64,000 nucleotides of DNA from Candidatus Omnitrophota bacterium (GTDB taxonomy: Bacteria > Omnitrophota > Gorgyraeia > Gygaellales > Profunditerraquicolaceae). The position numbers and the translations under genes are program-made. The stretch lies in NCBI GenBank assembly GCA_026387355.1, contig JAPLLW010000012.1:62612-126611 (forward strand), written 5' to 3'. Under the pieces are notes generated by a model. The model searched no databases. It had not been told where the DNA came from and worked only from the letters and a program-made list of their open reading frames with translations. The stretch's first letter is position 1. Every line of letters starts with the position of its first letter. This document shows, one piece after another, positions 4,753 to 56,628 of the stretch.

Positions 4753-5805
4753 TTGCCTATGAAAGACTTTCTTTATAAGTTGGCTACGGACAGGTACAGG
4801 GGGCCATTTTTTGCTATTTCAAAGCTCTTACTCTTACTGCTTTCTTTTGTTTATGGAGCCGTGATCAGGGGGTTAACCCTCCTTTTAACCTCTAGGGCGG
4901 TAAGCCCAAAATGCAGAGTTATTAGTATCGGCAATATTACTTTAGGGGGGACAGGTAAAACTTCTTTAGTAAAATTTGTTGCGCTTACCCTTCAGGCTAA
5001 TAAACATAAGGTTGCGATAATTAGCAGGGGTTATAAAAGACTAGCCTTAGGATTGGGTGATGAGCCTTCTATGTTGCTTAATGGTTTAAAGGATATTCCG
5101 GTGATTGTGGACAGGGACAGATTGCGTGGCGCCCAGAGAGCAGCTGATGAATACGCAGCAGATACGGTAATTTTTGATGATGGGATGCAGCAGTGGAGGG
5201 TAAAAAAGGATTTAGAGATCGTAGTAGTGAACGCGGTTGAGGCCTTTGGCAATCGGCATATGATACCTCGTGGGGTATTGCGTGAACCTCTCTCTTCGCT
5301 TAAGCGGGCAGATGTCTTTGTTTTAGCTAAGACTAATCTCGTCCTGAGCACTGAAGATATCAAAAAGAACTTGAATAAGATTAAACCCGGTACGCTTATC
5401 GTAGAGACTATACATCATCCGGAGGATTTATATGAACTTAGAAATCCGCAAAAGCATTTAGCTACGGATTTCCTGAAAGATAAAAACGTGGCTTTATTCT
5501 CAGGGATAGGCGATCCGGATTCTTTTGTAAGTTTGGTCAGGAATCTAGGGGCAAAGCCTAAATTGGATTTGAGGTTTATAGACCACCATAATTATAGCGA
5601 TGAGGATATATCCGGGATTATTAATAAATCTAAGCAGAAAGATCTAAAAATAATTGTTACAACAGAAAAAGATGCTTCTAGGCTCTCTGAAGAGAGGCTC
5701 AAGCCTTTTGATGATTTTAAACTCTTAGTTTTACCCATAAAATTAAAGATTGTTAAAAATGAAGGAGAATTTATTGCTAGATTACTTAGCTTGCGTTCTA
5801 TTTAA
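4753..5805 (+). CDS. lpxK: Tetraacyldisaccharide 4'-kinase LpxK
   Basis: The P-loop 'GNITLGGTGKT' is the LpxK signature. The 350-aa size fits, and waaA and lpxL neighbours support the call. Confidence 0.85.
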   Translation: MPMKDFLYKLATDRYRGPFFAISKLLLLLLSFVYGAVIRGLTLLLTSRAVSPKCRVISIGNITLGGTGKTSLVKFVALTLQANKHKVAIISRGYKRLALGLGDEPSMLLNGLKDIPVIVDRDRLRGAQRAADEYAADTVIFDDGMQQWRVKKDLEIVVVNAVEAFGNRHMIPRGVLREPLSSLKRADVFVLAKTNLVLSTEDIKKNLNKIKPGTLIVETIHHPEDLYELRNPQKHLATDFLKDKNVALFSGIGDPDSFVSLVRNLGAKPKLDLRFIDHHNYSDEDISGIINKSKQKDLKIIVTTEKDASRLSEERLKPFDDFKLLVLPIKLKIVKNEGEFIARLLSLRSI

Positions 5806-7702: not shown

Positions 7703-9786
7703 GAGTGCTGCAAATATTACCGGAACTTAATGTCGGGGGTGTTGAAACCGGGACACTGGACCTGGCTAAATACTTAGTGCGTCAGGGCCATCATGCAGTA
7801 GTAGTTTCGGCAGGAGGTGTTTTGGTCAAAGATTTAGAGGCACTGGGAGCTGTGCATTATCAATTACCGGTGCATAAGAAATCGCTATTTACCATGTTTA
7901 AGGCTATAGCGCCACTTGCGGAGATTATAAAAAAAGAAAAGATTGATATTGTGCATGCTCGATCGCGAGTTCCTGCCTGGATAGCTTATTTTGCTGCTCG
8001 AAAATGCAAGGTTGTTTTTATAACTACCTGTCATGGTTATTATAAAATGCATCCTTTTAGCTATGTTATGGGCTGGGCAAAAAGAGTAATTGTTTTGAGT
8101 AATATAATTGCCCGACATATGATCGATGATTTTAGCGTGCCGCATGAACGTATAAAGTTAGTCCCGCGAAGTGTAGATCTGGAGAAGTTTAAATATTTGA
8201 GTCCGGATAAGAAGCGGGGTAAAGAATTTAATATCGGTCTTATCGGTAGGATTACTCCTTTAAAGGGCCATCTTTATTTTATCAAGGCTATGGCTAAGGT
8301 GGCTAGAGTCGTGCCTACATTAAAAATCTGGATAGTGGGAGATGCGCCTAGTTCGCGTCAGGCATATAAAGAACAGGTCCAGGTTTTAACCAGGAGATTG
8401 GGACTTGATCATTGCACGGAGTTTCTGGGGACACAAAGGAATATTCCTGAGATCCTTTCGCATCTGGACCTGGTAGTTTTAGCTACCACAACTCATGAAG
8501 CATTCGGCAGGGTGATTATTGAGGCCCAGGCAGCAGGCGTTCCTGTGGTAGCAACCGAAGTAGGTGGTGTTGTAGATATTATTGAGAATGGTCGCACAGG
8601 TTTACTTGTTCCTCCTGCGGATGCGCAAGGGATGGCGGATGCGGTTGTTAAGATATTCAAGGATCCGTCTCTTGCTCGCGATTTTGCTGAGGCAGCGTAT
8701 AAAAAGGTTAAGGATAAATATAATATTGAATTGATGGTCAAGAATACGCTAGCTGTTTACGAAGAGGCCTTGAGTAACTTCAAGCTGCTCATTATAAAGC
8801 TCAGCTCTTTAGGAGATATTATTTTATCTACCGCAAGTTTAAGAGCGATAAGAGAAAGATTCCCGCATCATAAAGTGAGTCTTTTGGTAGGAGAGGAGTC
8901 CAAAGAAGTATTATTCAGATGCCCATATATAGATGAACTTTTAGTAGTTGATCTTAAAGATAAGGATAAGGGGCTAAAGGGTTTGCTAAGCATTGCCCGT
9001 ATTTTAAGAAAAAAGAACTTTGATTTAGTTATTGATCTGCAGAATAACCGCGCAAGCCATATACTTTCCTTTCTTTCTTTATCCATCGATCGCTACGGCT
9101 ATGATAATAAAAAACTAAGTTTCTTACTTAACCATCGGATTAAGGATATTCTGCCGTTAGTTGATCCGGTAGCGCATCAGTTTAGATTGCTTAAGATGTT
9201 GGGGATAGATCTGAAGGATAACCGTTTAGAGTTGTGGCCAGCTAAAGAAGATGAAGATTATGTGGAGAATTTATTAAATACGCAATGGTTAAGTATTGAC
9301 CAGAAGATCATCGGCATAAATATAAGCGCAAGTAAGCGCTGGCTCACTAAGTATTGGGCCAAAGATAATATTGCGCGGTTGTGCGAGGAGCTGGGTTTAC
9401 GAAATATGCGCGTAGTACTTACCGGAACAGCTAGAGATTCCGCGGACGCTAAAGAGATTATCTCTATGATTAAGAATACAAAAATCATAAATGCCTGCGC
9501 TAAAACCAATGTAAATCAGCTAGCTTGTTTAATTAAAAGATGCTCAGTATATATCTCCGCTGATTCTTCACCTTTACATATTGCTGTAGCAGTAAAGGTT
9601 CCTGTAATCGCATTTTTCGGGCCGACTGATCCTAATAGACATATGCCTCCGGCAAGAGAGGCAATAGTTATTAAAAGGGACCTACCGTGCAGCCCGTGTT
9701 ATAAACCCAAATGCAAGGATAAGAAATGCATGAGTTTGATTACAGTTGAAGAAGTTTTAGGGGCGGTAGAAAAGCTATCAAAATGA
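7699..9786 (+). CDS. Bifunctional glycosyltransferase with an N-terminal GT4 domain and a C-terminal GT9 (LPS heptosyltransferase-like) domain
   Basis: The GT4 motif 'EAFGRVIIEAQAAGVPVVATEVGG...GLLVPP' sits in residues ~1-350. From ~355, 'LLIIKLSSLGDIILSTASLRAIRERFPHHKVSLLVGEE' and the C-terminal 'SADSSPLHIAVAVKVPVIAFFGPTDP' are typical of WaaC/WaaF/WaaQ. Confidence 0.75.
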   Translation: MRVLQILPELNVGGVETGTLDLAKYLVRQGHHAVVVSAGGVLVKDLEALGAVHYQLPVHKKSLFTMFKAIAPLAEIIKKEKIDIVHARSRVPAWIAYFAARKCKVVFITTCHGYYKMHPFSYVMGWAKRVIVLSNIIARHMIDDFSVPHERIKLVPRSVDLEKFKYLSPDKKRGKEFNIGLIGRITPLKGHLYFIKAMAKVARVVPTLKIWIVGDAPSSRQAYKEQVQVLTRRLGLDHCTEFLGTQRNIPEILSHLDLVVLATTTHEAFGRVIIEAQAAGVPVVATEVGGVVDIIENGRTGLLVPPADAQGMADAVVKIFKDPSLARDFAEAAYKKVKDKYNIELMVKNTLAVYEEALSNFKLLIIKLSSLGDIILSTASLRAIRERFPHHKVSLLVGEESKEVLFRCPYIDELLVVDLKDKDKGLKGLLSIARILRKKNFDLVIDLQNNRASHILSFLSLSIDRYGYDNKKLSFLLNHRIKDILPLVDPVAHQFRLLKMLGIDLKDNRLELWPAKEDEDYVENLLNTQWLSIDQKIIGINISASKRWLTKYWAKDNIARLCEELGLRNMRVVLTGTARDSADAKEIISMIKNTKIINACAKTNVNQLACLIKRCSVYISADSSPLHIAVAVKVPVIAFFGPTDPNRHMPPAREAIVIKRDLPCSPCYKPKCKDKKCMSLITVEEVLGAVEKLSK

Positions 9787-11727: not shown

Positions 11728-12770
11728 TGAGTAAAGAGCATTCTGCTAAACGCATCCTTATTTTTAATGTTAATTGGCTAGGAGATGTTTTATTCTCTAC
11801 CGCTGTAATTAGAAATGTTCGACGTAATTTCCCGCATAGTTTTATTGCCTGCGTAATACCCAGCAGGTGCTATCCGGTGCTAAAAGGTAATCCGCATTTA
11901 GACGAAATAATTATCTTTGACGAAAAAGACCGGCATAGAAATGTCCTTCAGCGTTTAGATTTTATTCGCATACTTAAGGCTAAGAAATTTGATATTGCTT
12001 ATTTATTGCACCGTTCTTTCAGCCGCGCCTTAATCTGCAGGCTTGCGGGTATCCCTGAAAGGATAGGGCACCATACAAAGAAGAGAGGCTTTCTACTTAC
12101 AAAAAAAATCATACCTCCGCATAGAGATTCTTTGCATCGTATAGATTATTATTTGGATGTTATTGAAAAGGCGGGTTTAAAGATTGAAGACAGGTTTGCG
12201 GAATTCTTTTTTGGAAATGAGGACTTAGAATTCGTTGAAAAATTCTTAAGCAAGAATACGGTAGCAAAGGAAGATTTTGTAGTTGTGCTGAATCCTGGAG
12301 GAAACTGGTTGGCTAAGCGTTGGCCAAAAGATCATTGGGCGCGTCTTGCGGACAAATTAATACATGATTTCAAAGCCAAAGTGGTACTTACCGGTTCCCA
12401 TAATGATATATCTTTGGCTAAACATATCCAGGATGAGATGGTAAATAAGCCGATAATTGCCTGTGGAGTATTTAATTTAAAACAGCTTGGGGCATTAGCT
12501 AAGAGAGCGGATATATTTATTACTGCTGATACAGGGCCTTTGCATATTGCCAATAGCGTAGGTGCAAAGAAGATTATTGCAATCTTCGGTCCGACCTCAA
12601 CCTTGATTACCGGGCCTTATCCTGTGAAAAATGTAGTCATTCTGCAAAAAGACGTAGGCTGCGTTATCCCTTGTTATGAAGTTAACTGTAAAGATAGCCG
12701 TTGCATGAAGGCAGTTACAGTAGATGACGTAATAAATCAAGTAAAGTTACTAAGACTTACCAATGGTTAA
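11727..12770 (+). CDS. Glycosyltransferase family 9 (ADP-heptose:LPS heptosyltransferase-like)
   Basis: 'ILIFNVNWLGDVLFSTAVIRNVRRNFP' and 'ITADTGPLHIANSVGAKKIIAIFGPT' are typical GT9 motifs. Confidence 0.85.
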   Translation: MSKEHSAKRILIFNVNWLGDVLFSTAVIRNVRRNFPHSFIACVIPSRCYPVLKGNPHLDEIIIFDEKDRHRNVLQRLDFIRILKAKKFDIAYLLHRSFSRALICRLAGIPERIGHHTKKRGFLLTKKIIPPHRDSLHRIDYYLDVIEKAGLKIEDRFAEFFFGNEDLEFVEKFLSKNTVAKEDFVVVLNPGGNWLAKRWPKDHWARLADKLIHDFKAKVVLTGSHNDISLAKHIQDEMVNKPIIACGVFNLKQLGALAKRADIFITADTGPLHIANSVGAKKIIAIFGPTSTLITGPYPVKNVVILQKDVGCVIPCYEVNCKDSRCMKAVTVDDVINQVKLLRLTNG

Positions 12771-14787
12771 TAAAATCTTATTTATAACATTAAGTAATAT
12801 CGGTGATGTAGTATTGACTTTGCCGGTCCTAGATTTCCTGCGTCAGAATTTTCCCAATGCTTCGATTAGCGTAATTTGCGGCGTTAGGCCAAAAGAGCTG
12901 TTTGTTAATAGCCCGTACATCAATAAGCTTATTGTCTACGATAAGTATGCTCACCTTGCGCAGAAGCTAGAATTATTTAATAATCTAAGAAGAGAAAATT
13001 TTGATTTGATAGTGGATTTACGTAACTCCTTTCTGGGAGCGATTTTGCCAACTAGGTTTAGGACTTCCCCATTCCTAATGATACCTAGGTATATACAACA
13101 TATGAAAGATAGGCATCTTTATAGAGTCAAGAGTTTACGGTTAGGGAATGAATTAGCTAAGCCCGTGGATAAAACTTTTAATATCGCTCGTGCCGATGAG
13201 GAGTTTATTAAAAAGATATTGCAAGAAAATAATATACGTGAAGACGATAGATTGGTAGTAGTTTCTGCCGGAGCCAGGAGTGGTAGCAAGAAATGGCCCA
13301 GGGAAAGATTTGTGCAATTAATTTTTAAGTTAGTAAATGAATTATCTGTGAAAATAATTCTGGTGGGGGATAAAGGAGATGTTGCGTTAAGCCAGTCTAT
13401 TGCTAAGGAGTTAAAAAGTCAAGTCCTGGACTTAAGCGGCAGAACAAACTTAGGTGCATTAGCTGCGCTTATAAAGAAATCTAACCTTTTAATATGTAAT
13501 GATAGTGCAGTAATGCATATTGCTAGCTATTTTGATATTCCGGTTGTAGCTATATTTGGAATTACCGATGATGAAAAATACGCCCCATGGTCACAAGATT
13601 CTTCTGTGGTAAAGAAAGAGATCTTCTGCAGACCGTGCGAAAAGGCTGTATGCAGATTTGGGACTTTAGAATGTCTATCCCGGGTGCAGGTTGACGATGT
13701 CTTTAGAGAGGTAAAAGACAGATTAGAGAAAAAAGTTATAAGTAAAATCCCGCAAGATCTTAAGCGTATATTAATTGTACGTACTGATAGAATCGGAGAT
13801 GTGCTTTTATCTACTCCTGTAATTAAGGCGATTAGAGAGAGATATCCAAATGCTTTTCTTGCGATGATGGTTTCTGCGTATGCCAGGGAGATTATCGAAG
13901 GCAATCCTTATTTAGACCAGGTGATTATTTATGATAAAGACACAAAGCATAAGACTTGGATAAGTTCAATTAAGTTTGCCAAAGATCTTAATAAAAAGAA
14001 GTTTGATCTAGCGCTAGTCTTACATCCGACTAACCGCGTGCATTTAATTACTTTCCTCGCTGGGGTTCCCAGGAGGATAGGGTTAAACCGGAAGTTAGGG
14101 TTTTTGCTTACTAGTAAGTCAACGCATACCAAACAATTCGGGGAAAAGCATGAGTTAGAATATAACCTTGGTTTATTAAATTTTCTAGGGATTAAAGCAG
14201 AAGATAAAAGATTGTATATGCCGATTAAAGAAGAATCTGAAAAGAAGATCGAAGAGATGTTTCAGTTTCAATGTTTATGGTCGAAAGATAAATTATTAGC
14301 AATTCATCCGGCTGCCAGCTGTCCTTCTAAGATTTGGCCGGTAGAACGTTTTGCTGAATTAGCCGAAAAATTAGCGCAAAAATACGGGTTTAAAGTTTTA
14401 ATTGTCGGCGCCCCAAATGAAATGGGGCTTGCCGAAGATTTAATTAAGCGCATACATATACCGGTGATTAATTTCGTAGGTAAGACATCGATTAGTCAAT
14501 TAGCCAGTTTATTAAAAAGATGTACACTTTTTATTTCAAATGATTCAGGCCCGGTGCATATTGCATCAGCCGTAGGTACGCCGGTAATCTCAATTTTCGG
14601 AAGGAATCAGGCAGGCTTGAGTCCTAAGCGTTGGGGGCCAGTGGGCCCTAAAGATAAATTCTTGCATAAAGAGGTTGGGTGCATTAAGTGTTTGGCTCAT
14701 AATTGCAAGAAGGAATTCGCCTGTCTTAAGGCGATAAGCGTTGAGGATGTGGTTGAAGCGGCTAGTGTAATTATTAATCAACATTAG
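12763..14787 (+). CDS. Tandem double GT9 heptosyltransferase-like protein (two complete GT9 domains in one polypeptide)
   Basis: Domain 1 has 'ILFITLSNIGDVVLTLPVLDFLRQNFP' and 'ICNDSAVMHIASYFDIPVVAIFG'. Domain 2 (from ~aa 335) has 'ILIVRTDRIGDVLLSTPVIKAIRERYP' and 'ISNDSGPVHIASAVGTPVISIFG'. Confidence 0.8.
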   Translation: MVNKILFITLSNIGDVVLTLPVLDFLRQNFPNASISVICGVRPKELFVNSPYINKLIVYDKYAHLAQKLELFNNLRRENFDLIVDLRNSFLGAILPTRFRTSPFLMIPRYIQHMKDRHLYRVKSLRLGNELAKPVDKTFNIARADEEFIKKILQENNIREDDRLVVVSAGARSGSKKWPRERFVQLIFKLVNELSVKIILVGDKGDVALSQSIAKELKSQVLDLSGRTNLGALAALIKKSNLLICNDSAVMHIASYFDIPVVAIFGITDDEKYAPWSQDSSVVKKEIFCRPCEKAVCRFGTLECLSRVQVDDVFREVKDRLEKKVISKIPQDLKRILIVRTDRIGDVLLSTPVIKAIRERYPNAFLAMMVSAYAREIIEGNPYLDQVIIYDKDTKHKTWISSIKFAKDLNKKKFDLALVLHPTNRVHLITFLAGVPRRIGLNRKLGFLLTSKSTHTKQFGEKHELEYNLGLLNFLGIKAEDKRLYMPIKEESEKKIEEMFQFQCLWSKDKLLAIHPAASCPSKIWPVERFAELAEKLAQKYGFKVLIVGAPNEMGLAEDLIKRIHIPVINFVGKTSISQLASLLKRCTLFISNDSGPVHIASAVGTPVISIFGRNQAGLSPKRWGPVGPKDKFLHKEVGCIKCLAHNCKKEFACLKAISVEDVVEAASVIINQH

Positions 14788-14937
14788 CGTCTCACCTTGT
14801 CTTGTTTCTCGCAGGGACGCTTGTTTTGCCCTAGCGTGGCAAAACTAAGCTCGGGTCGGCTGCGTCGCTCTCTGACACTAAGGTGACGGAACCATGCCCG
14901 CTCCTTGCCGACACGCCCTGCTCGAAATCAAGTCAAG
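14788..14937 (+). repeat. GC-rich ~150-bp intergenic repeat element, copy A (MITE-like, or a structured RNA), with imperfect terminal inverted repeats
   Basis: It is ~85% identical to 50766-50914. The left end 'CGTCTCACCTTGTCTTGTTTCTCGCAGG' and the right end 'CCTGCTCGAAATCAAGTCAAG' form an imperfect inverted repeat. An internal hairpin reads GTTTTGCC-ctagcgt-GGCAAAAC. It is sharply GC-rich in an AT-rich genome and starts 1 nt after the stop codon. Confidence 0.6.
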
Positions 14938-14999
14938 TTGAGGCGCATGAAATATCTAGTTGATTTAACAGTAAATTATGTTAAAATTATAGCTTCGCC

Positions 15000-15929
15000 A
15001 TGATTAACTTAAACAAAGTAAAGACATATTCAATTAAGACCCGTTTTAGCAAGGTAAAATCGACAGATTTTGCCAAGATACCGGCTAAGGGGAGGAGTTT
15101 CTCTAGCTTTATGGATTCCCTTCCTAATATCTTAAAGGCTAAGGAGATACACTCTATTGTTGAAAGCATAGTTAAGGCTCGAAAGCAGAAGAAAGCCGTG
15201 ATCTTAATGGCTGGCGCGCATGTGATAAAATGCGGGCTGAATCCGGTGATAATTGAGCTGATTAAAAAGAAGGTTATTACTTGCGTATGCCTTAACGGAG
15301 CCGGTATAATCCATGATTTTGAACTAACCCTTCAGGGGAAGACTTCTGAAGATGTTGCGGAGAATTTAAAAACCGGTAAATTCGGGATGGGCCGGGAGAC
15401 CGCCGATTTCTTAAATAACGCTGTTGTCGACGGAGTAGCTGATGGCTTAGGCTTAGGTTATGCAGTAGCCAAGAAGATAGATGAAACAAAATTGCCGCAT
15501 AAAAACCTAAGTTTATTGCTAGCAGCTTATAAGCAGAAGATCCCGCTTTGCGTATTTGTGGCTATCGGAACAGACATTATCCACCAGCATCCTTCTTTTG
15601 ATGCCGGGCTTACTGCCGAAGGTTCCCAGCGCGATTTTTATACTTTAGTAGAGCATATAAGTTCACTTAATAATGGCGGAGTGGTTTTAAATTTTGGTTC
15701 AACGGTAATTATGCCGGAGGTATTCCTTAAGGCGCTTAATCTTGCGCGCAATCTTGGTGGAAAAGTGAAAGATTTTACTACTGCAAATTTTGATATGATT
15801 CACCACTACCGGCCGCAGCAGAATGTAGTGACGCGACCGGTTCTATCCGGCGGTAAAGGTTATTATATTATCGGTCACCACGAAATAATGCTCCCGCTTT
15901 TAGCGCAGGCAGTAACGGAGAGGTTATGA
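15000..15929 (+). CDS. Deoxyhypusine synthase-like protein (DHS family, NAD-binding fold)
   Basis: The pattern 'VILMAGAHVIKCG..LNPVIIELIKKKVITCVCLNGAGIIHDF' parallels the DHS core 'IFLGYTSNLISSG..VDVLVTTAGGVEEDL'. A weaker C-terminal similarity 'GVVLNFGSTVI' is also present. The call rests on recalled motifs only. Confidence 0.45.
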   Translation: MINLNKVKTYSIKTRFSKVKSTDFAKIPAKGRSFSSFMDSLPNILKAKEIHSIVESIVKARKQKKAVILMAGAHVIKCGLNPVIIELIKKKVITCVCLNGAGIIHDFELTLQGKTSEDVAENLKTGKFGMGRETADFLNNAVVDGVADGLGLGYAVAKKIDETKLPHKNLSLLLAAYKQKIPLCVFVAIGTDIIHQHPSFDAGLTAEGSQRDFYTLVEHISSLNNGGVVLNFGSTVIMPEVFLKALNLARNLGGKVKDFTTANFDMIHHYRPQQNVVTRPVLSGGKGYYIIGHHEIMLPLLAQAVTERL

Positions 15930-46960: not shown

Positions 46961-47978
46961 AGGGTCAGTAGAGATAGTTAATAACAGAGAGTCCGAAGAA
47001 GATGTTGTTTTAAATATCTCTCTGCGGCCTAAGAAATTCGCTGAATTCCTCGGACATAAAGAGATTGTCGATAACTTAAAGATCTCTATTCAGGCAGCTA
47101 AGCAAAGAAACGAGCCGCTTGAGCATGTTTTGTTGAGTGGTCCTCCCGGCTTAGGGAAAACATCTTTGTCGCATATCATTGCTCATGAAATGAGTGCTAA
47201 GATTACCGCTACAAGTGGACCGGCAATTGAGCGTGCAGGCGACCTGATCGGAATATTAACTAATTTAGAGCAGGGTGATATTTTATTTATTGATGAGATC
47301 CACCGCCTATCTAAAGTAGTCGAAGAATTTTTATACCCGGCGATGGAGAGTTTTCAGATTGATTTTGTTATTGATAAGGGTCCGTATGCTAAGACGATTA
47401 AATTTAATCTTAAGCCTTTTACTCTGATAGGCGCGACTACGCGCAGCGGCCTGCTTGCCGCTCCCTTACGCGGAAGATTTGGGATATTTTATTCCTTAGA
47501 TTTTTATAAAATTGAAGATTTGGCAAAAATTGTCATGCATTCAGCTGATATATTAGGGGTTAATATGGAGAATTCTGCAGCCGAGGAAGTGGCGCGCAGG
47601 GCCCGCGGGACTCCGCGCATAGCCAATAGGTTATTGCGCCGCATAAGAGATTATGCGCAGGTTTCAGGAGTCAAAATTGTTACCTTTGAGATGGCTTCTA
47701 AGTCATTGGATGATTTAAGAATTGATAAAGCCGGTTTTGATGACTTGGATCGCAAGGTATTAAGGCTGGTCTTGGAGTCTTATAACGGAGGCCCGGTGGG
47801 GGTTGAGTCATTGGCTGCGAGCTTAAATGAGGAAGTGGATACTATTGTGGATACAGTAGAGCCGTATCTATTAAAGGCAGGTTATTTGAAACGCACCTCG
47901 CGCGGCCGTACCGCTACCAAGCTGGCATTCGATCACTTCGGTTTAAAATATACCAAAGAACAGCAGGATCTTTTTTAA
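46929..47978 (+). CDS. ruvB: Holliday junction branch-migration helicase RuvB
   Basis: The AAA+ Walker A 'GPPGLGKTSL', 'LFIDEIHRL', and 'ATTRSGLLAAPLRGRFGI'. No ruvA is adjacent. Confidence 0.9.
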   Translation: MTEEIRQSILKGSVEIVNNRESEEDVVLNISLRPKKFAEFLGHKEIVDNLKISIQAAKQRNEPLEHVLLSGPPGLGKTSLSHIIAHEMSAKITATSGPAIERAGDLIGILTNLEQGDILFIDEIHRLSKVVEEFLYPAMESFQIDFVIDKGPYAKTIKFNLKPFTLIGATTRSGLLAAPLRGRFGIFYSLDFYKIEDLAKIVMHSADILGVNMENSAAEEVARRARGTPRIANRLLRRIRDYAQVSGVKIVTFEMASKSLDDLRIDKAGFDDLDRKVLRLVLESYNGGPVGVESLAASLNEEVDTIVDTVEPYLLKAGYLKRTSRGRTATKLAFDHFGLKYTKEQQDLF

Positions 47979-47982
47979 TGAA

Positions 47983-48033
47983 TCTGCCGTGTTTCTCGCT
48001 TAGCGGGTGGCGCCGTGACAGGACCCGCCAGAG
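47983..48033 (+). repeat. Short GC-rich repeat, copy D: a truncated left-TIR-like segment plus the 'GCGGGTGGCGCCGTGACAGGACCCGC' hairpin module
   Basis: 'TCTGCCGTGTTTCTCGC' resembles the left ends of elements A and B. The module GCGGGT-ggcgccgtgacagg-ACCCGC recurs at 50957-50982, at 51014-51038, and in reverse at 55625-55645. Confidence 0.45.
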
Positions 48034-48043
48034 TAATTAATTT

Positions 48044-50755: not shown

Positions 50756-50765
50756 AATATATTTA

Positions 50766-50914
50766 GCGTCTGTCTTGTCTTGTTTCTCGCAGGGACGCTT
50801 GTTTTGCCCCAGCGTGGCAAAACTGCGCTCGGGTCGGCTGCGTCGCTCGTCCGCGTTTCACTCGGACACCGTGCCCGCTCCTTGCCGACACGCCCTGCTC
50901 GAAATCAAGCCAAG
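50766..50914 (+). repeat. GC-rich ~150-bp intergenic repeat element, copy B (paralogue of 14788-14937)
   Basis: About 85% identical to copy A. The left end 'GCGTCTGTCTTGTCTTGTTTCTCGCAGG' and right end 'CCTGCTCGAAATCAAGCCAAG' form an imperfect inverted repeat. It has the same internal GTTTTGCC/GGCAAAAC hairpin and begins ~10 nt after the queA stop. Confidence 0.6.
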
Positions 50915-50956
50915 CCATTCGCTAAGCTTAGGCCATATATAAATAATTAAGGTTTA

Positions 50957-51038
50957 AGCGGGTGACGCGGCGACAGGTCCCCTACTTTTCGAGGCGAATA
51001 GCCGAGAACAAGTAGGGTGGCGACGCGGCAGGACCCGC
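50957..51038 (+). repeat. Palindromic GC-rich segment carrying two divergent copies of the 'GTGACAGGACCCG' module flanking an inner CCTACTT/AAGTAGG stem
   Basis: 'AGCGGGTGACGCGGCGACAGGTCCCC' and 'AGGGTGGCGACGCGGCAGGACCCGC' both resemble the module at 48002-48027. The segment abuts, and may overlap, the tgt start. Confidence 0.4.
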
Positions 51039-51056
51039 TTGAAATTAAGAATAAAT

Positions 51057-52190
51057 ATGTTTACTTTAATTCAACAAGACAAAAATAGTAAAGCACGTCT
51101 GGGCAAGCTAGCCACAGAGCATGGCGAAATTGAGACGCCGGTTTTTATGCCTGTTGGTACGCACGCTACTGTTAAAGGACTTTATCCCAAGGATATCTTA
51201 GAGTCTGGCGCGCAGATTATGCTTTCCAACACCTATCATTTATTTCTCCGGCCGGGTATGGATGTTATACGTAAGGCTGGGGGATTGCATAAATTTATCT
51301 CTTGGGAGAAGCCAATACTTACGGATAGCGGGGGATACCAGGTTTTTAGTCTTGCGCTTTTAAGGAAATTAAGCGACAAGGGAGTTGAGTTTCAATCGCA
51401 CATTGACGGATTCAAACATTTTCTCACCCCTGAAGATGTTGTTGATATACAGATTGATTTAGGTTCTGATATTATGATGCCTTTGGATGAGTGCGTGCAT
51501 TATCCCTGCACTAAGGATCATGCTGAGGTAGCCATGAAACGCACGCTTGGCTGGGCAAATCGTTCACGTAAGCATCTGCTTGAGCATAAAAAACATGGTC
51601 CGACAAAGAAACAATTGCTTTTTGGTATTGTGCAGGGAGCAACTTACGATGACCTGCGTAAAATTTGTGCCAAGGAGATTGTGGATATTGATTTTGACGG
51701 TTATGCTATAGGAGGAGTTTCTGTTGGAGAACCCAGCGAGTTAATATATAATATACTTGATTATTCCGCATCGTTACTACCTTCAGAAAAACCACGATAT
51801 GCTATGGGCATAGGCTATCCTCCTGATATTGTTGAGGCGGTGGATAGAGGTATAGATATGTTTGATTGCGTGGTGCCTACGCGTTACGGAAGAAACGGCA
51901 CGGCTTTTACCAGCAGGGGAAAAGTCCCCATTAAGAATGCCGCATACACCGAAGACCTTAGGGCTCTTGATGAGGAGTGCTTGTGTTATGTCTGCAAGAA
52001 TTTCAGCCGTTCATACCTGCGGCATCTATTTAATGCGCAGGAGATGTTAGGGCTTACGCTACTTTCATTGCATAATGTTTATTATTTCTTGGATTTGGCA
52101 CGAAAGATCCGCGAAGCGATTAAGAAAAATCAGTTTAGCGAATTTAAAAAAGAATTTTTATCAAAATATAATAATTCCGCATGCGCATAG
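51057..52190 (+). CDS. tgt: Queuine tRNA-ribosyltransferase
   Basis: 'ETPVFMPVGTHATVKG', the catalytic region 'LTDSGGYQV', and the zinc site 'CLCYVC...H'. The track offers a TTG at 51039 that lies inside the repeat, so the ATG at 51057 is preferred. Confidence 0.88.
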   Translation: MFTLIQQDKNSKARLGKLATEHGEIETPVFMPVGTHATVKGLYPKDILESGAQIMLSNTYHLFLRPGMDVIRKAGGLHKFISWEKPILTDSGGYQVFSLALLRKLSDKGVEFQSHIDGFKHFLTPEDVVDIQIDLGSDIMMPLDECVHYPCTKDHAEVAMKRTLGWANRSRKHLLEHKKHGPTKKQLLFGIVQGATYDDLRKICAKEIVDIDFDGYAIGGVSVGEPSELIYNILDYSASLLPSEKPRYAMGIGYPPDIVEAVDRGIDMFDCVVPTRYGRNGTAFTSRGKVPIKNAAYTEDLRALDEECLCYVCKNFSRSYLRHLFNAQEMLGLTLLSLHNVYYFLDLARKIREAIKKNQFSEFKKEFLSKYNNSACA

Positions 52191-54220: not shown

Positions 54221-54782
54221 AATGTATAAGCAGGGACCAATCGATAAATATATAGACGATCTGGCTGCTAAATTACCGGCTCCGGGTGGCGGATCAGCTG
54301 CTGCTCTTAATGCCTCAATGGGGGCTGCCCTAATCAGTATGGTGGTTAATTTTACTCTCGGTAAACCCAAATACGCAGAATACGAAAAAGAACTCAAAGG
54401 TATTTTGGGTAAATCCGAGAATCTCAAGGGAGAATTTTTAAGGCTCATGGATCTTGATGTAATTGCCTATCAGAGTAAGAATATGCGGGATGCATTAAAT
54501 GTCCCTTTTATGCTAACCAGGCTTTGTTGCGAAGGGCTAAAGCTCTGTCCGCCGCTTTTAAAAATGGGAAATAAAAATCTCATAAGTGATGTGGCAGTAG
54601 CGGCGATAATGCTTGAGTCTGCTTATGCATGCGCCTATTTTAACGTTATTATAAATCTAAATACAATTGCTGATACGAAACTGACTCAGGTAGTAGAAAA
54701 AGAGTTAAAACAAAAAGACAAGATAGTGAAAAAGATAAGAAAAGACGTGGAGGATAAAGTTGGCAAAATTATTAGAGGGTAA
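54210..54782 (+). CDS. Cyclodeaminase/cyclohydrolase-family protein (FTCD C-terminal domain-like, possibly a methenyl-THF cyclohydrolase)
   Basis: 'LPAPGGGSAAALNASMGAAL' is the hallmark of the formiminotransferase-cyclodeaminase C-domain family. It is adjacent to folD. Confidence 0.65.
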   Translation: MPTKMYKQGPIDKYIDDLAAKLPAPGGGSAAALNASMGAALISMVVNFTLGKPKYAEYEKELKGILGKSENLKGEFLRLMDLDVIAYQSKNMRDALNVPFMLTRLCCEGLKLCPPLLKMGNKNLISDVAVAAIMLESAYACAYFNVIINLNTIADTKLTQVVEKELKQKDKIVKKIRKDVEDKVGKIIRG

Positions 54783-55593
54783 ACCCTTAGCTGAAGCGAT
54801 TAAGGAAAAGATCAGGCTTGATGTAGCGGGGATGAGTAAAAAGCCAGTTTTAGCTAGCGTTATTGTAGGAGATAATGCCGGAGCTGCTTCTTATGCGAAA
54901 TCCCAAGCGAAGGTCGCTGAGTCTTTGGGTATCGTTTACCAATTGCATGCTTTGGGTAATGATACTACAGAAGTAACACTAGTTGATTTTATCAAGAAGC
55001 TCAACAACGATAAGGATGTAAACGGGATAATTGTGCAAATGCCCCTTCCTGCGCAGATAGACGCAAAAAAGATTAGCCAGCTGATTGCTCCGGAAAAAGA
55101 TGTTGAAGGAATGCATCCTGCAAATATGGGTAAGATTGTTTTTGAGAAAAGCAAAGTACTTCCTTGCACGCCTGCGGCAGTTGTTGAGTTATTGAATAGT
55201 ACCGGAGTTGACCTTTATGGCAAGGAAGTGGTAGTTGTCGGCCATAGCGAGATCGTGGGTAAGCCGGTCGCGTTATTACTTCTAGATAAATTTGCTACGG
55301 TTACAGTATGCCATATCGGAACTTCTAAGGCAGGAAAACTAGAGGAGCATGTTAAAAAGGCGGAAGTTTTGATTGTAGCTGTTGGCCGCGCCGGATTGAT
55401 CAAGGGTGATTGGGTTAAAGATGGCGCAATTGTAATAGATGTTGGAATTAACAGAGTGGCGGATAAAATTGTGGGGGATGTAGAGTTTGAGGTAGCTGAG
55501 AAAAAGGCTTCCTATATTACACCTGTTCCAGGTGGCGTTGGCCCGCTTACTGTCACTATGCTCATGCGCAACCTCGTTGAGCTAGCTAAGTAA
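54760..55593 (+). CDS. folD: Bifunctional methylene-THF dehydrogenase / methenyl-THF cyclohydrolase
   Basis: 'GIIVQMPLP', 'CTPAAVVELL' and 'VVVGHSEIVGKPVALLL...VTVCH' and 'TPVPGGVGPLTVTML'. Confidence 0.9.
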   Translation: MAKLLEGKPLAEAIKEKIRLDVAGMSKKPVLASVIVGDNAGAASYAKSQAKVAESLGIVYQLHALGNDTTEVTLVDFIKKLNNDKDVNGIIVQMPLPAQIDAKKISQLIAPEKDVEGMHPANMGKIVFEKSKVLPCTPAAVVELLNSTGVDLYGKEVVVVGHSEIVGKPVALLLLDKFATVTVCHIGTSKAGKLEEHVKKAEVLIVAVGRAGLIKGDWVKDGAIVIDVGINRVADKIVGDVEFEVAEKKASYITPVPGGVGPLTVTMLMRNLVELAK

Positions 55594-55600
55594 TATTTAA

Positions 55601-55736
55601 TCCGTTCTTTTCTCGTTTAATTATTTTACGGGTCCTGTCACGGGGCGCTTCTTGCGCTAAGATGCGCTTCGAAGCATCCCCGTGCCACCCGTAAAAAGTA
55701 TAATGTGTACCTGCGAGAAACAAGACAAGGCAGACG
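55601..55736 (+). repeat. GC-rich repeat element, copy C: a long imperfect hairpin (55623-55699) bounded by a degenerate left end and a near-perfect inverted copy of the A/B left TIR at its right end
   Basis: The right end 'CCTGCGAGAAACAAGACAAGGCAGACG' (55710-55736) is the reverse complement of the copy B left end 'CGTCTGTCTTGTCTTGTTTCTCGCAGG' with 1 mismatch. The left end 'TCCGTTCTTTTCTCG' resembles the same TIR. The core hairpin is TTTACGGGT...CACGGGG...GATGC-GCTTCGAAGC-ATC...CCCCGTG...ACCCGTAAA, and it contains the reverse of the GTGACAGGACCCG module. Confidence 0.5.
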
Positions 55737-55749
55737 ATAAATTTATTGG

Positions 55750-56628
55750 TTGAAAAGAATGACCTTCAAAGAGAAAATCCAGGCAAATAAGTTTTTAGTT
55801 ACTTCTGAAATCGGCCCGCCAAAAGGAATTGAATTCAGCCATCTTTTAGAGGATGCAGAATTAATCCGTACCCGCGTAGATGCGATTAATGTTACTGACC
55901 TGCAGAGCTCAGTGATGCGGCTGGGGTCTTTAGCTGTCTGCAGTATTTTAAAACAGAACGGCTTTGAGCCGATATTTCAGATGACCTGCCGCGATAGGAA
56001 CCGCCTGGCCTTACAGTCGGATCTGCTATCAGCAGCTGCTTTTGGAATTGAAAATGTTTTAATGCTTACCGGTGACCATACTACCTTAGGCGACCATCCT
56101 GACGCAAAACCAGTTTTTGATTTAGATTCAGTGCAATTGCTGCAGGTAGCTAAAAAACTCCAGGAAGGCGCTGATATGAAAGGCAATAAGTTAACCGGGG
56201 CTAGCCCTAAGTTTTGCTTGGGCGCGGTTGTTAATCCCGGAGCTGATCCAATTGAGCCGCAGATCATAAAGATGGAGAAAAAGATTGCTGCGGGCGCAGA
56301 GTTCTTTCAGACCCAGGCAGTATATGATCTAAAAATCTTCGAGAATTTCTTGAGTAAGACCAGGCATCTTAAAACTAAGATCATGGCCGGGATTGTTTTA
56401 CTTAAATCCGCAGGAATGGCTAAATATATGAATAAGAATGTTGCGGGGGTATTTGTTCCGGATAATCTGATTAAAGAGATGGAAGAGACAAAAGATAAGA
56501 CAGCGCAGTCAATTGAGATTGCCTCGCGCCTGATCAACGAATTAAAGCCTATGTGTGACGGAATACATATTATGCCTATTGGCTGGGATAAGTTAGTCCC
56601 GCGTGTTTTAGACGCTTCAAGTTTATGA
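55750..56628 (+). CDS. metF: 5,10-methylenetetrahydrofolate reductase
   Basis: 'FLVTSEIGPPKG', 'NVLMLTGD' and the 292-aa size. The start may be a TTG at 55750 or the ATG at 55759. Confidence 0.85.
   Translation: MKRMTFKEKIQANKFLVTSEIGPPKGIEFSHLLEDAELIRTRVDAINVTDLQSSVMRLGSLAVCSILKQNGFEPIFQMTCRDRNRLALQSDLLSAAAFGIENVLMLTGDHTTLGDHPDAKPVFDLDSVQLLQVAKKLQEGADMKGNKLTGASPKFCLGAVVNPGADPIEPQIIKMEKKIAAGAEFFQTQAVYDLKIFENFLSKTRHLKTKIMAGIVLLKSAGMAKYMNKNVAGVFVPDNLIKEMEETKDKTAQSIEIASRLINELKPMCDGIHIMPIGWDKLVPRVLDASSL

Follow-up and report, generated by a model that had tools for sequence, protein, structure and literature searches.

A family of highly structured interspersed repeats in Candidatus Omnitrophota, represented by two intergenic elements in a 64-kb stretch of one genome

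Introduction

A 64,000-nucleotide stretch of contig JAPLLW010000012.1 from a Candidatus Omnitrophota bacterium, called the window here whenever the whole stretch is meant, carries two similar GC-rich segments directly after the stop codons of unrelated genes. This raises the question of what kind of element they represent. An earlier note on this DNA had suggested a mobile element resembling a miniature inverted-repeat transposable element (MITE), or else a structured non-coding RNA or a terminator module. The two segments, here called copies A and B, are members of a new family of interspersed repeats with an elaborate structure, so far confined to the Omnitrophota, whose full elements are about 160-235 nt long, non-coding and GC-rich. 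With about as much doubt as conviction, we favour the reading that the family is a non-autonomous, structure-dependent mobile repeat of the kind represented by REPINs (doublets of repetitive extragenic palindromic, REP, sequences), enterobacterial repetitive intergenic consensus (ERIC) sequences and MITEs.

The Omnitrophota are abundant, barely cultivated nanobacteria. Searches for a repeat, MITE or intergenic element of Omnitrophota or Velamenicoccus gave nothing relevant in the searchable literature, and it appears that no repeat or non-coding element family has been described for this phylum.

Results and Discussion

The two copies in the window

Copies A and B are 36 kb apart, among the housekeeping genes queA, tgt, trmD and those of glycosyltransferase family 9 (GT9). 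Upstream of copy A is a tandem Glyco_transf_9 gene and upstream of copy B is queA (Pfam); downstream of them are a deoxyhypusine-synthase-like (DS-like) gene and tgt, respectively. Both copies are co-oriented with their operons and begin at, or at most 8 nt from, a stop codon; the G of the TAG stop of the GT9 gene is the first base of the outer stem of copy A. All open reading frames (ORFs) longer than 130 aa in three listed stretches of the window are on the + strand. The GC content of the elements is 0.55-0.58, as compared to about 0.40 for the window. Their parts are as follows, with helices (P) and junctions (J) labelled as in the consensus fold described below and scores from the covariance model R1, built from the family alignment.

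14787-14946, + strand: copy A, full element with a type I middle domain (R1 match 14782-14953, 149.5 bits, E 4.9e-34)
14787-14794/14939-14946, + strand: copy A, outer stem P1, GCGTCTCA pairing with TGAGGCGC
14796-14816/14916-14937, + strand: copy A, arms P2-P4
14823-14845, + strand: copy A, hairpin P5, GTTTTGCC, loop CTAGCGT, GGCAAAAC; in diverged members the stem covaries and the loop is kept
14871-14890, + strand: copy A, hypervariable tip hairpin P8, TCTGACAC-TAAG-GTGACGGA; unlike that of copy B in sequence, still a hairpin, and P8 pairs covary family-wide
14891-14903, + strand: copy A, conserved unpaired junction ACCATGCCCGCTC, J8/7 plus the 3' side of P7; columns at least 90% conserved that no search pattern selected
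50763-50925, + strand: copy B, full element, type I (R1 match 50760-50930, 173.3 bits, E 1.1e-39; minus strand 11.9 bits)
50763-50768/50920-50925, + strand: copy B, outer stem P1, TTAGCG pairing with CGCTAA
50774-50794/50893-50914 and 50801-50823, + strand: copy B, arms and hairpin P5
50849-50867, + strand: copy B, hypervariable tip hairpin P8, GTCCG-CGTTTCACT-CGGAC

The similarity that had first drawn attention to the two segments was confirmed, with a mean column identity of 87% in the pairwise alignment. The repeat finder resolved it into a 5' block of 75 nt (14796-14870 against 50774-50848) and a 3' block of 47 nt (14891-14937 against 50868-50914), both 96% identical, and the approximately 20 nt between the blocks are wholly different in the two copies, yet self-complementary in each, so as to form a hairpin. 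A core 29-mer and a core 23-mer are present only in copies A and B within the window, and shuffled windows gave none. The similarity begins at TTAGCGTCT and ends at CAAG. The terminal inverted repeat of about 21 bp that the earlier note described is present, but it was drawn too short, since the inverted repeat extends farther out to the ends of the outer stems (14787-14946 and 50763-50925), and the size of the element in the window is therefore about 160-163 nt. Because the flanks and the neighbour genes of A and B are unrelated, the segmental duplication including flanking coding sequence that had been raised against a repeat is excluded.

Size and distribution of the family

To the question of whether the two copies stand alone, the answer is that many further copies exist in relatives, as the suggestion of a repeat family had anticipated. 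A genome scan with an exact 19-mer from the 3' block, covering one genome per species and 185,579 species, gave 19 stretches, of which 5 align over the whole element; the other 14 match over only 19-23 bases, as expected by chance. The five full-length homologues are all in three metagenome-assembled genomes (MAGs) of Candidatus Omnitrophota, namely nzgw297 (three copies), CG11_41_12 and GWA2_41_15. A metagenome scan with the exact 5'-hairpin (P5) pattern found the element on at least 120 contigs. These were one scan of each kind, both with exact patterns, so that the copy numbers are lower bounds and the diversity is biased towards the patterns.

About 120 metagenome loci, 1.03 Mb in total, were retrieved and are labelled L with a number. 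Their taxonomy was derived from synteny with the window and the three MAGs, for a subset only, and their ORFs were called with a simple custom caller. From the loci 126 copies were extracted, 101 of them distinct and complete, and a profile search of the same 1.03 Mb gave 157 matches, including diverged copies that the pattern had not selected. The density is very uneven, from 5-6 copies per 5.7 kb in L128 to the 2 copies per 64 kb of the window. No viral contig matched the 5'-hairpin pattern, no sequence match was found in plasmids or phages, and 5,426 complete E. coli genomes, in which ERIC copies are present, gave no match by blastn.

The earlier note could not match the segments to RNase P, SRP, tmRNA, 6S or riboswitches, and Rfam agrees. 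With Rfam 15 at the gathering threshold there were no matches in the window, and at E<=10 only chance matches (E 3.7-6.9) were obtained around copies A and B. The comparison included HEARO and IS605-orfB RNAs, 6S, SRP, tmRNA, RNase P, ribozymes and riboswitches, none of which reached the threshold, and a scan of the window for tRNA and tmRNA genes gave none. Only tRNAs and one group I intron were found by Rfam in 17 related loci. The intron (RF00028, 86.9 bits; L057 8173-8415) is situated between tRNA-Thr(TGT) at 8057-8129 and tRNA-Gly(TCC) at 8568-8639, outside the called tRNA genes.

The four Logan contigs that encode exactly the queA of the window all stop 27-48 nt past its stop codon, inside copy B, which is the typical signature of an assembly-breaking repeat. 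The family is so frequent that it breaks assemblies and punctuates core operons. Uses of the covariance model include masking or annotation of the elements, detection of mis-assemblies and service as a lineage marker.

Consensus fold

The consensus fold was obtained with RNAalifold on the two main subtypes together with counts for each pair, and one architecture is common to all copies. A long imperfect terminal stem, P1-P4, of about 30 bp and with fixed bulges, closes a three-way junction. P1 has the consensus TTTAGCGGGT/ACCCGCTAAA and is 6-19 bp long; its outer part varies by subfamily with its complementarity kept. It is followed by a fixed asymmetric loop, CCTGT/CC, by P2 (CTTGGCTTG/CAAGCCAAG) and a bulged T, by P3 (TTTC/GAAA) and a 2x2 loop UC/UC, and by P4 (GCGGGG/CCCCGC).

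The first branch of the junction is the hairpin P5, GTTTTGCC and GGCAAAAC around the loop CC(A/T/G)GCG(T/A). The earlier note had seen this hairpin with its 7-nt loop, and it is real and found family-wide. The GACGC...GCGTC pair that was thought to bracket it did not hold up; the pairing conserved in the family is instead between ACGC and the GCG directly 3' of the hairpin. The second branch consists of the arm P6, a second UC/UC loop, P7 and the tip hairpin P8. On the 3' side of P8 the unpaired, conserved ACCNTGCC enters the 3' strand of P7 (GC), forming the conserved block ACCNTGCCCGCTC. P6 is GTCGGC/GCCGAC in type I, the type in the window, with GTGGGC/GCCCAC as another version, and GGACCC/GGGU.CC with CUG/CGG in type II. 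P8 ranges from 13-nt stem-loops to perfect palindromes of 16-18 bp, and many tips are perfect palindromes closed by a loop of 3 nt. A subset of the copies has an optional insert of about 50 nt, with two hairpins, after P5. A pseudoknot between the GCG of the P5 loop and the UGC of J8/7 had a single supporting double change, in L060, and is not claimed.

A separate observation concerns palindromes within the element. When compared with its nearly identical twin at L128 4134, one copy in L128 has an insertion of 35 nt at 5634-5668, TCCCGTTAGAAAAC-GTA-GTTTTCTAACGGGG-CCCG, in the conserved junction. The insertion is a perfect 13-bp palindrome with CCCG on either side, and it resembles the element ends turned inside-out. 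The P8 tip hairpin of many copies has the same inside-out look.

Covariation and conservation

Covariation was counted in a MAFFT alignment of 87 distinct copies over 62 pairs, with shuffled and slid controls. The proportion of paired cells was 89.8%, as compared to 79.2% in shuffled and 33-47% in slid controls; 43 of the 62 pairs were changed on both sides (28 shuffled, 22-28 slid), and the covariation score was 0.269 (0.106 shuffled, 0.04-0.06 slid), where it should be kept in mind that the structure was derived from the same sequences as were used for the counts, for which the controls correct only partly. Examples are a P4 pair with GC in 43 and AU in 36 copies, and a P8 pair with CG in 45, GC in 35 and UA in 4.

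P5 is invariant in this alignment because the exact P5 search pattern required it, and its covariation is seen only in the diverged copies from the later profile search. In these the P5 stem is GATTTTCC/GGAAAATC, GGATTTTC/GAAAATCC, GCTTTTCC/GGAAAAGC or GCTCGCC/GGCGAGC, with the loop unchanged. P4 may be GCAGCA/TGCTGC, and P6 CAAAATTC/GAATTTTG or TGCGTTGC/GCAACGCA. Thus the stems of P4, P5 and P6 change in a compensatory manner while the P5 loop and J8/7 are retained, and a few unpaired segments are at least 90% conserved even though no search pattern chose them. The compensatory changes imply that the fold has been under selection over long times.

Orientation, neighbours and turnover of sites

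Between co-directional genes, 34 copies are sense and 29 antisense (p 0.61), and the profile scores of sense and antisense copies are equal (p 0.91). There is no bias with respect to GC skew (39:28, p 0.22). The sense copies lie at a median of 19.5 nt past the upstream stop codon.

These numbers bear on the possibility of an intrinsic terminator module, or of a 3' untranslated region shared through segmental duplication. The window copies do lie directly after stop codons, as either would require. However, the outer stem is followed by A-runs, and not by a U-tract, on both strands, no terminator was found after either window copy on the + strand, half of all copies are antisense to the operon, the flanks of A and B are unrelated, and more than 100 copies are scattered over unrelated contexts. 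The terminator module suggested earlier is thereby refuted together with the shared 3' region, and the probability we would still allow them is negligible.

The neighbours are housekeeping genes: queA, tgt, trmD, GT9, PfkB, SHMT, FolD, the CCA-adding enzyme, Sua5, ABC transporters and a TonB-dependent receptor, among others. No neighbour protein family recurs beyond what synteny explains, the largest cluster being found in 9 of about 120 loci. Among the Pfam matches of the 26 neighbouring proteins scanned there was no tyrosine-recombinase (integrase) family, and none of the annotated neighbours adjoining an element was a transposase.

Several sites shared between genomes were compared. The gap between queA and tgt is 1-4 nt, or the genes overlap, in L032, L087 and L092, whereas in the window the two genes are split by copy B together with a mini element of 85 nt; L119 has an element after queA. 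Upstream of queH, L092, L076, L055 and L032 have an element, where the window has only a minimal hairpin of 25 nt and part of another repeat; the full element of L032 aligns to the site of the minimal hairpin. Upstream of the DS-like gene, an element is present in seven genomes, between which the flanking proteins are 56-76% identical. Here the element is sense and of type I in the window and L005, sense and of type II in L120 and L126, and antisense in L018, L091 and L105. Copy A is 78.9% identical to its positional counterpart in L005 and 79.3% to its paralogue B, and the L005 copy is 84.7% identical to B, so that the similarity between orthologues does not exceed that between paralogues. 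This pattern agrees with recurrent insertion, replacement or conversion at a favoured spot, and not with vertical descent of one functional locus. Several subfamilies also occur on one contig, each with near-identical pairs.

Two further arrangements were seen. A tRNA-Arg(CCG) gene is found upstream of an element in L029 (3132-3204) and L049 (7954-8026), at distances of about 20 nt and about 165 nt, and this appears as a shared site with different variants, short in L029 and long in L049. Inverted back-to-back pairs of different subfamilies, 0-8 nt apart, occur at L070 1844-2013 (+)/2022-2211 (-) and at L117 198-377 (+)/375-586 (-), and amount to doublets of doublets.

Element ends

At both ends, every copy carries an imperfect inverted repeat that measures at least some 30 bp. 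No target-site duplications were found, that is, no direct repeats flank the about 100 distinct copies, and the complementarity outwards continues as inverted repeat. A GATAATC repeat near the copy in L088 was not interpretable. A 5' tetranucleotide of the GTAG type is absent, and the unit common to the copies is TTTAGCGGGT-CCTGT...CC-ACCCGCTAAA.

A classical MITE, a deletion derivative of an insertion sequence (IS) with a DDE transposase that moves by cut-and-paste with target-site duplication, would share with the element the terminal inverted repeats, the small size, the lack of an ORF and the many intergenic copies in both orientations. The missing direct repeats speak against it, and neither a transposase nor any longer element with the ends TTTAGCGGGTCCTG...CCACCCGCTAAA was found in 1 Mb of loci. 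Furthermore, the internal helices covary, which recognition of the terminal inverted repeats alone leaves unexplained, and we consider a MITE in this strict sense improbable. The MITE-like character proposed by the earlier note is therefore borne out in the multiple copies, both orientations, filled and empty sites and nesting, but not in a target-site duplication or an autonomous partner, neither of which was found. For the same two reasons, repeats of the REPIN and ERIC type are the closer analogy.

Mobility and the nature of the folded strand

A mobile element in the broad sense is the best supported reading, on account of the many copies in either orientation, the filled and empty sites, the nesting and the assembly breaks. 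A mobilisation step and an enzyme are what we infer from these traits: an enzyme whose gene lies elsewhere in the genome would copy or move the elements in trans, and it would recognise the folded single strand, most likely of DNA. A RAYT-like HUH transposase, RAYT standing for REP-associated tyrosine transposase, or another structure-specific recombinase would fit as the mobiliser. The fold and a few loop and junction sequences would be kept for mobilisation and all else would drift. The window copies are probably passively co-transcribed with the + strand operons.

Several results weigh against such a mobile repeat. No longer element with the same ends was found in the 1.03 Mb of loci. No homologue of IS200 or RAYT was found there at E<0.1 by phmmer or tblastn with IS200 TnpA and E. 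coli RAYT as the queries, which is a weak negative. No insertion junction could be read at base resolution, the flanks of filled and empty pairs being only 66-71% identical and too diverged. The retention of elements at shared syntenic sites could be due to a host function. Invariant junctions and loops beside covarying stems are what is expected of a functional RNA, and richer than in most described MITEs. Finally, it seems that one specific strand is folded, in a way that fits RNA at least as well as DNA: the stems contain 182 G.U as compared to 104 A.C mismatches, and five positions have frequent wobble, for instance U.G in 40 of 87 copies at one P6 pair.

The support for assigning the strand from G.U and A.C is moderate, since it is driven by these five positions. 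At one P8 pair U.G alternates with C-G, and the highest number of A.C at any position is 13. Without the five positions there are 65 G.U and about 101 A.C, so no G.U bias, and the type I copies alone have 37 and 34. With the covariance model the window copies reach 173 and 149.5 bits on the + strand, as compared to 11.9 bits on the - strand, a gap that reflects sequence as much as structure. Folding with RNA parameters beats shuffled sequences for both copies on both strands (z -2.9 to -4.3), and folding with DNA parameters does so too (z -3.7 and -4.7).

If the element functions as a structured RNA, it might be a small RNA in many copies or a component of a ribonucleoprotein (RNP), or else a cis element of polycistronic mRNAs acting in processing, stability or protein binding. 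This would agree with the strong covariation in every helix, the nearly invariant unpaired segments, the excess of G.U with conserved U.G pairs that are valid on the + strand only, the difference in model score between the strands, and the position of the window copies and the sense copies in general shortly after stop codons. It would not be expected, however, that orientation is random with respect to the genes and that antisense copies are as well conserved as sense copies, or that one syntenic site holds different subfamilies in different orientations. In 98 5' flanks, -10-like hexamers were not enriched at any position relative to the 3' flanks, no promoter was found before A or B, and no conserved 5' promoter or terminator accompanies the family, in which A-runs follow on both strands. 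No Rfam family matches even at E 10, the mismatches lose their G.U bias with the five wobble positions removed, and tips made of perfect palindromes with 3-nt loops are a habit of DNA rather than RNA. The structured RNA proposed in the earlier note is thus upheld as far as the structure goes, not in orientation or in transcription signals, and we regard an RNA function as doubtful.

A host site acting at the level of DNA, as a cruciform or single-stranded hairpin, could be imagined for nucleoid organisation, site-specific recombination or priming of the ssi/sso type. Such a site would work whichever way transcription runs, DNA parameters give stable folds, and elements are kept at shared syntenic sites in genomes with 56-76% protein identity. 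The conserved P5 loop CC(A/T/G)GCG(T/A), with TAGCGT in copy A, may resemble the CS-6 loop of ssoA origins, which is taken as a lead only. Presence and absence nevertheless differ at the queA-tgt junction, the density is very uneven (2 in 64 kb in the window, 5-6 in 5.7 kb in L128), there are truncated, nested and remnant copies, and the GC-skew bias that a single-strand function linked to replication would predict was not seen. A host site of this kind is therefore unlikely.

It is also conceivable, though tentative, that the element is the substrate or partner of a structure-specific machine, either a new mobile system that recognises hairpins and inserts palindromes without target duplication or a new class of multi-copy structured RNA or RNP found throughout the genomes of Omnitrophota. 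As a new mobile system, it may have left the inside-out P8 palindromes and the 35-nt palindrome of L128 as footprints. The protein-contact or catalytic core would, on both views, consist of the invariant P5 loop, the two internal UC/UC loops and the ACCNUGCCCGCUC junction. If the family is truly selfish DNA only, it is a well-documented new example, and if the conserved core is functional, it is a new class of structured nucleic acid. The alignment, rich in covariation, and the newly available complete genomes make phylogenetic profiling possible for a new hairpin-recognising enzyme or RNA-binding partner.

Comparison with known repeats

REP sequences and REPINs, mobilised by RAYTs, share many properties with the mobile repeat that we favour. 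The properties of REPINs are well established: they are extragenic GC-rich hairpins formed from inverted arms, present in many copies among core genes and often just after stop codons, with no target-site duplication and no internal gene. They occur as singles, inverted doublets and mosaics (compare the bacterial interspersed mosaic elements, BIMEs), their stems are kept by paired changes, and they persist at syntenic sites. The present element is larger and branched, with a three-way junction and conserved loops, whereas a REP is a palindrome of 20-40 nt or a simple hairpin of about 100 nt. Moreover, REPs and REPINs are known from Proteobacteria, another phylum, the present element lacks the GTAG tetranucleotide and any sequence similarity to them, and no RAYT was found in the loci.

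The ERIC sequences, or intergenic repeat units (IRU), of Enterobacteria are imperfect palindromes of about 127 bp or more, intergenic, in either orientation and highly conserved between species. Longer forms have arisen by insertion at fixed internal sites, for which the insert of about 50 nt after P5 is the counterpart here, and shorter forms by deletion, and neither a transposase nor a duplication is known for them. In sequence the present element bears no similarity to ERIC, and it differs in its branched core, in the covariation of all arms and in the hypervariable palindrome at the tip. Correia elements (NEMIS), BOX, RUP and MITEs are likewise small non-coding repeats with inverted ends that are co-transcribed, modular and break short-read assemblies, but Correia elements, RUP and most MITEs have target-site duplications and parent IS families, neither of which was found here.

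The attC sites of integrons, or another site at the boundary of cassettes, resemble the element in that structure is more conserved than sequence, a single strand folds, the imperfect palindrome has fixed bulges, the tip is variable and sometimes branched, and the position is often directly 3' of an ORF. L128 even looks like an array, in which successive copies are separated by one or two ORFs of unknown function. The outer stem (G)TTTAGCGGGT...ACCCGCTAAA(C), with its covarying variants, is however different from the core-site consensus RYYYAAC...GTTRRRY, and the element is larger. The window copies form no co-oriented array, being far apart among housekeeping genes, and orientation in the family is mixed. 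With no integrase among the 26 neighbour proteins scanned and no recurrent neighbour family, an attC-type site is very improbable.

Relation to a second repeat family

A second repeat family, of about 265 nt with the inverted ends AATGAAYCTGGCGGTTTTCGAGCGA ... CTGAGCGAGAAAAGCGGCAGGTTCATT (example L029 3425-3690), has no Rfam match. It was seen in at least 19 of the about 120 loci (L029, L036, L080, L091, L132, L005, L128, L135, L066, L041 and others), often 10-30 nt 3' of the main element, and a fragment of it is present in the window at 47977-48003. The insert with two hairpins that is present in long variants of the main element (L143 1450-1518, L098 4383-4445) is homologous to L029 3485-3553, with 75-76% identity over 63-69 nt, and therefore the two families share modules in the manner of mosaic repeats.

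Other pieces in the window

Additional pieces are present in the window, of which the two mini relatives and the minimal hairpin were revealed by the R1 covariance-model search with its filters off.

50956-51040 (85 nt), - strand: mini relative adjoining copy B, AAGCGGGT-CCTG...CCCTACTT/AAGTAGGG...ACCCGCTT (R1 19.6 bits, E 0.004; DNA fold z -3.3)
55624-55696 (73 nt), + strand: mini relative, TTTTACGGGT-CCTGT-CACGGGG...CCCCGTG-CC-ACCCGTAAAA (R1 38.3 bits, E 1.5e-7; DNA fold z -8.0)
55710-55735, - strand: solo 5' arm of the main element, a truncated remnant whose reverse complement is GTCTGCCTTGTCTTGTTTCTCGCAGG, as read against the family consensus
48003-48027, - strand: minimal hairpin upstream of queH, GCGGGT-CCTGTCACGGCGCC-ACCCGC (R1 match 47995-48034, 10.6 bits, E 0.6, weak alone)
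47977-48003, strand unassigned: terminus fragment of the second repeat family, AATGAATCTGCCGTGTTTCTCGCTTAG, matching the inverted-repeat ends of L029 3425-3690; given as context, outside the main element

The 73-nt mini relative is placed between the ORFs 54760-55593 and 55750-56628. The motif CGGGTCCTG occurs three times in the window, as compared to 0.14 expected, once in each mini relative and once in the minimal hairpin. All three share P1 and the CCTG(T)/CC module with the family consensus, and this end module is the common denominator of several kinds of element, which is expected if a mobilising enzyme recognises the end module.

A few observations were made on the genes beside the two copies. 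The gene before copy A (12763-14787) encodes a fusion of two Glyco_transf_9 (heptosyltransferase-like) domains, 674 aa in length, and comes after a GT9 gene with one domain. Identity to the orthologues in relatives is only 56-60%, with the gene order kept. Near copy A there is a single sigma-70-like site, TTGATT-16-TAAAAT preceded by a TG, at 14960-14987, between the element and the DS-like gene at 15000, and it is possibly a promoter for the downstream DS-like and PfkB genes. Beside copy B, the mechanically assigned start of the tgt ORF, TTG at 51039, falls inside the outer stem of the mini element, and it is more likely that tgt starts at the ATG at 51057 (MFTLIQQD...; site 51039-51059).

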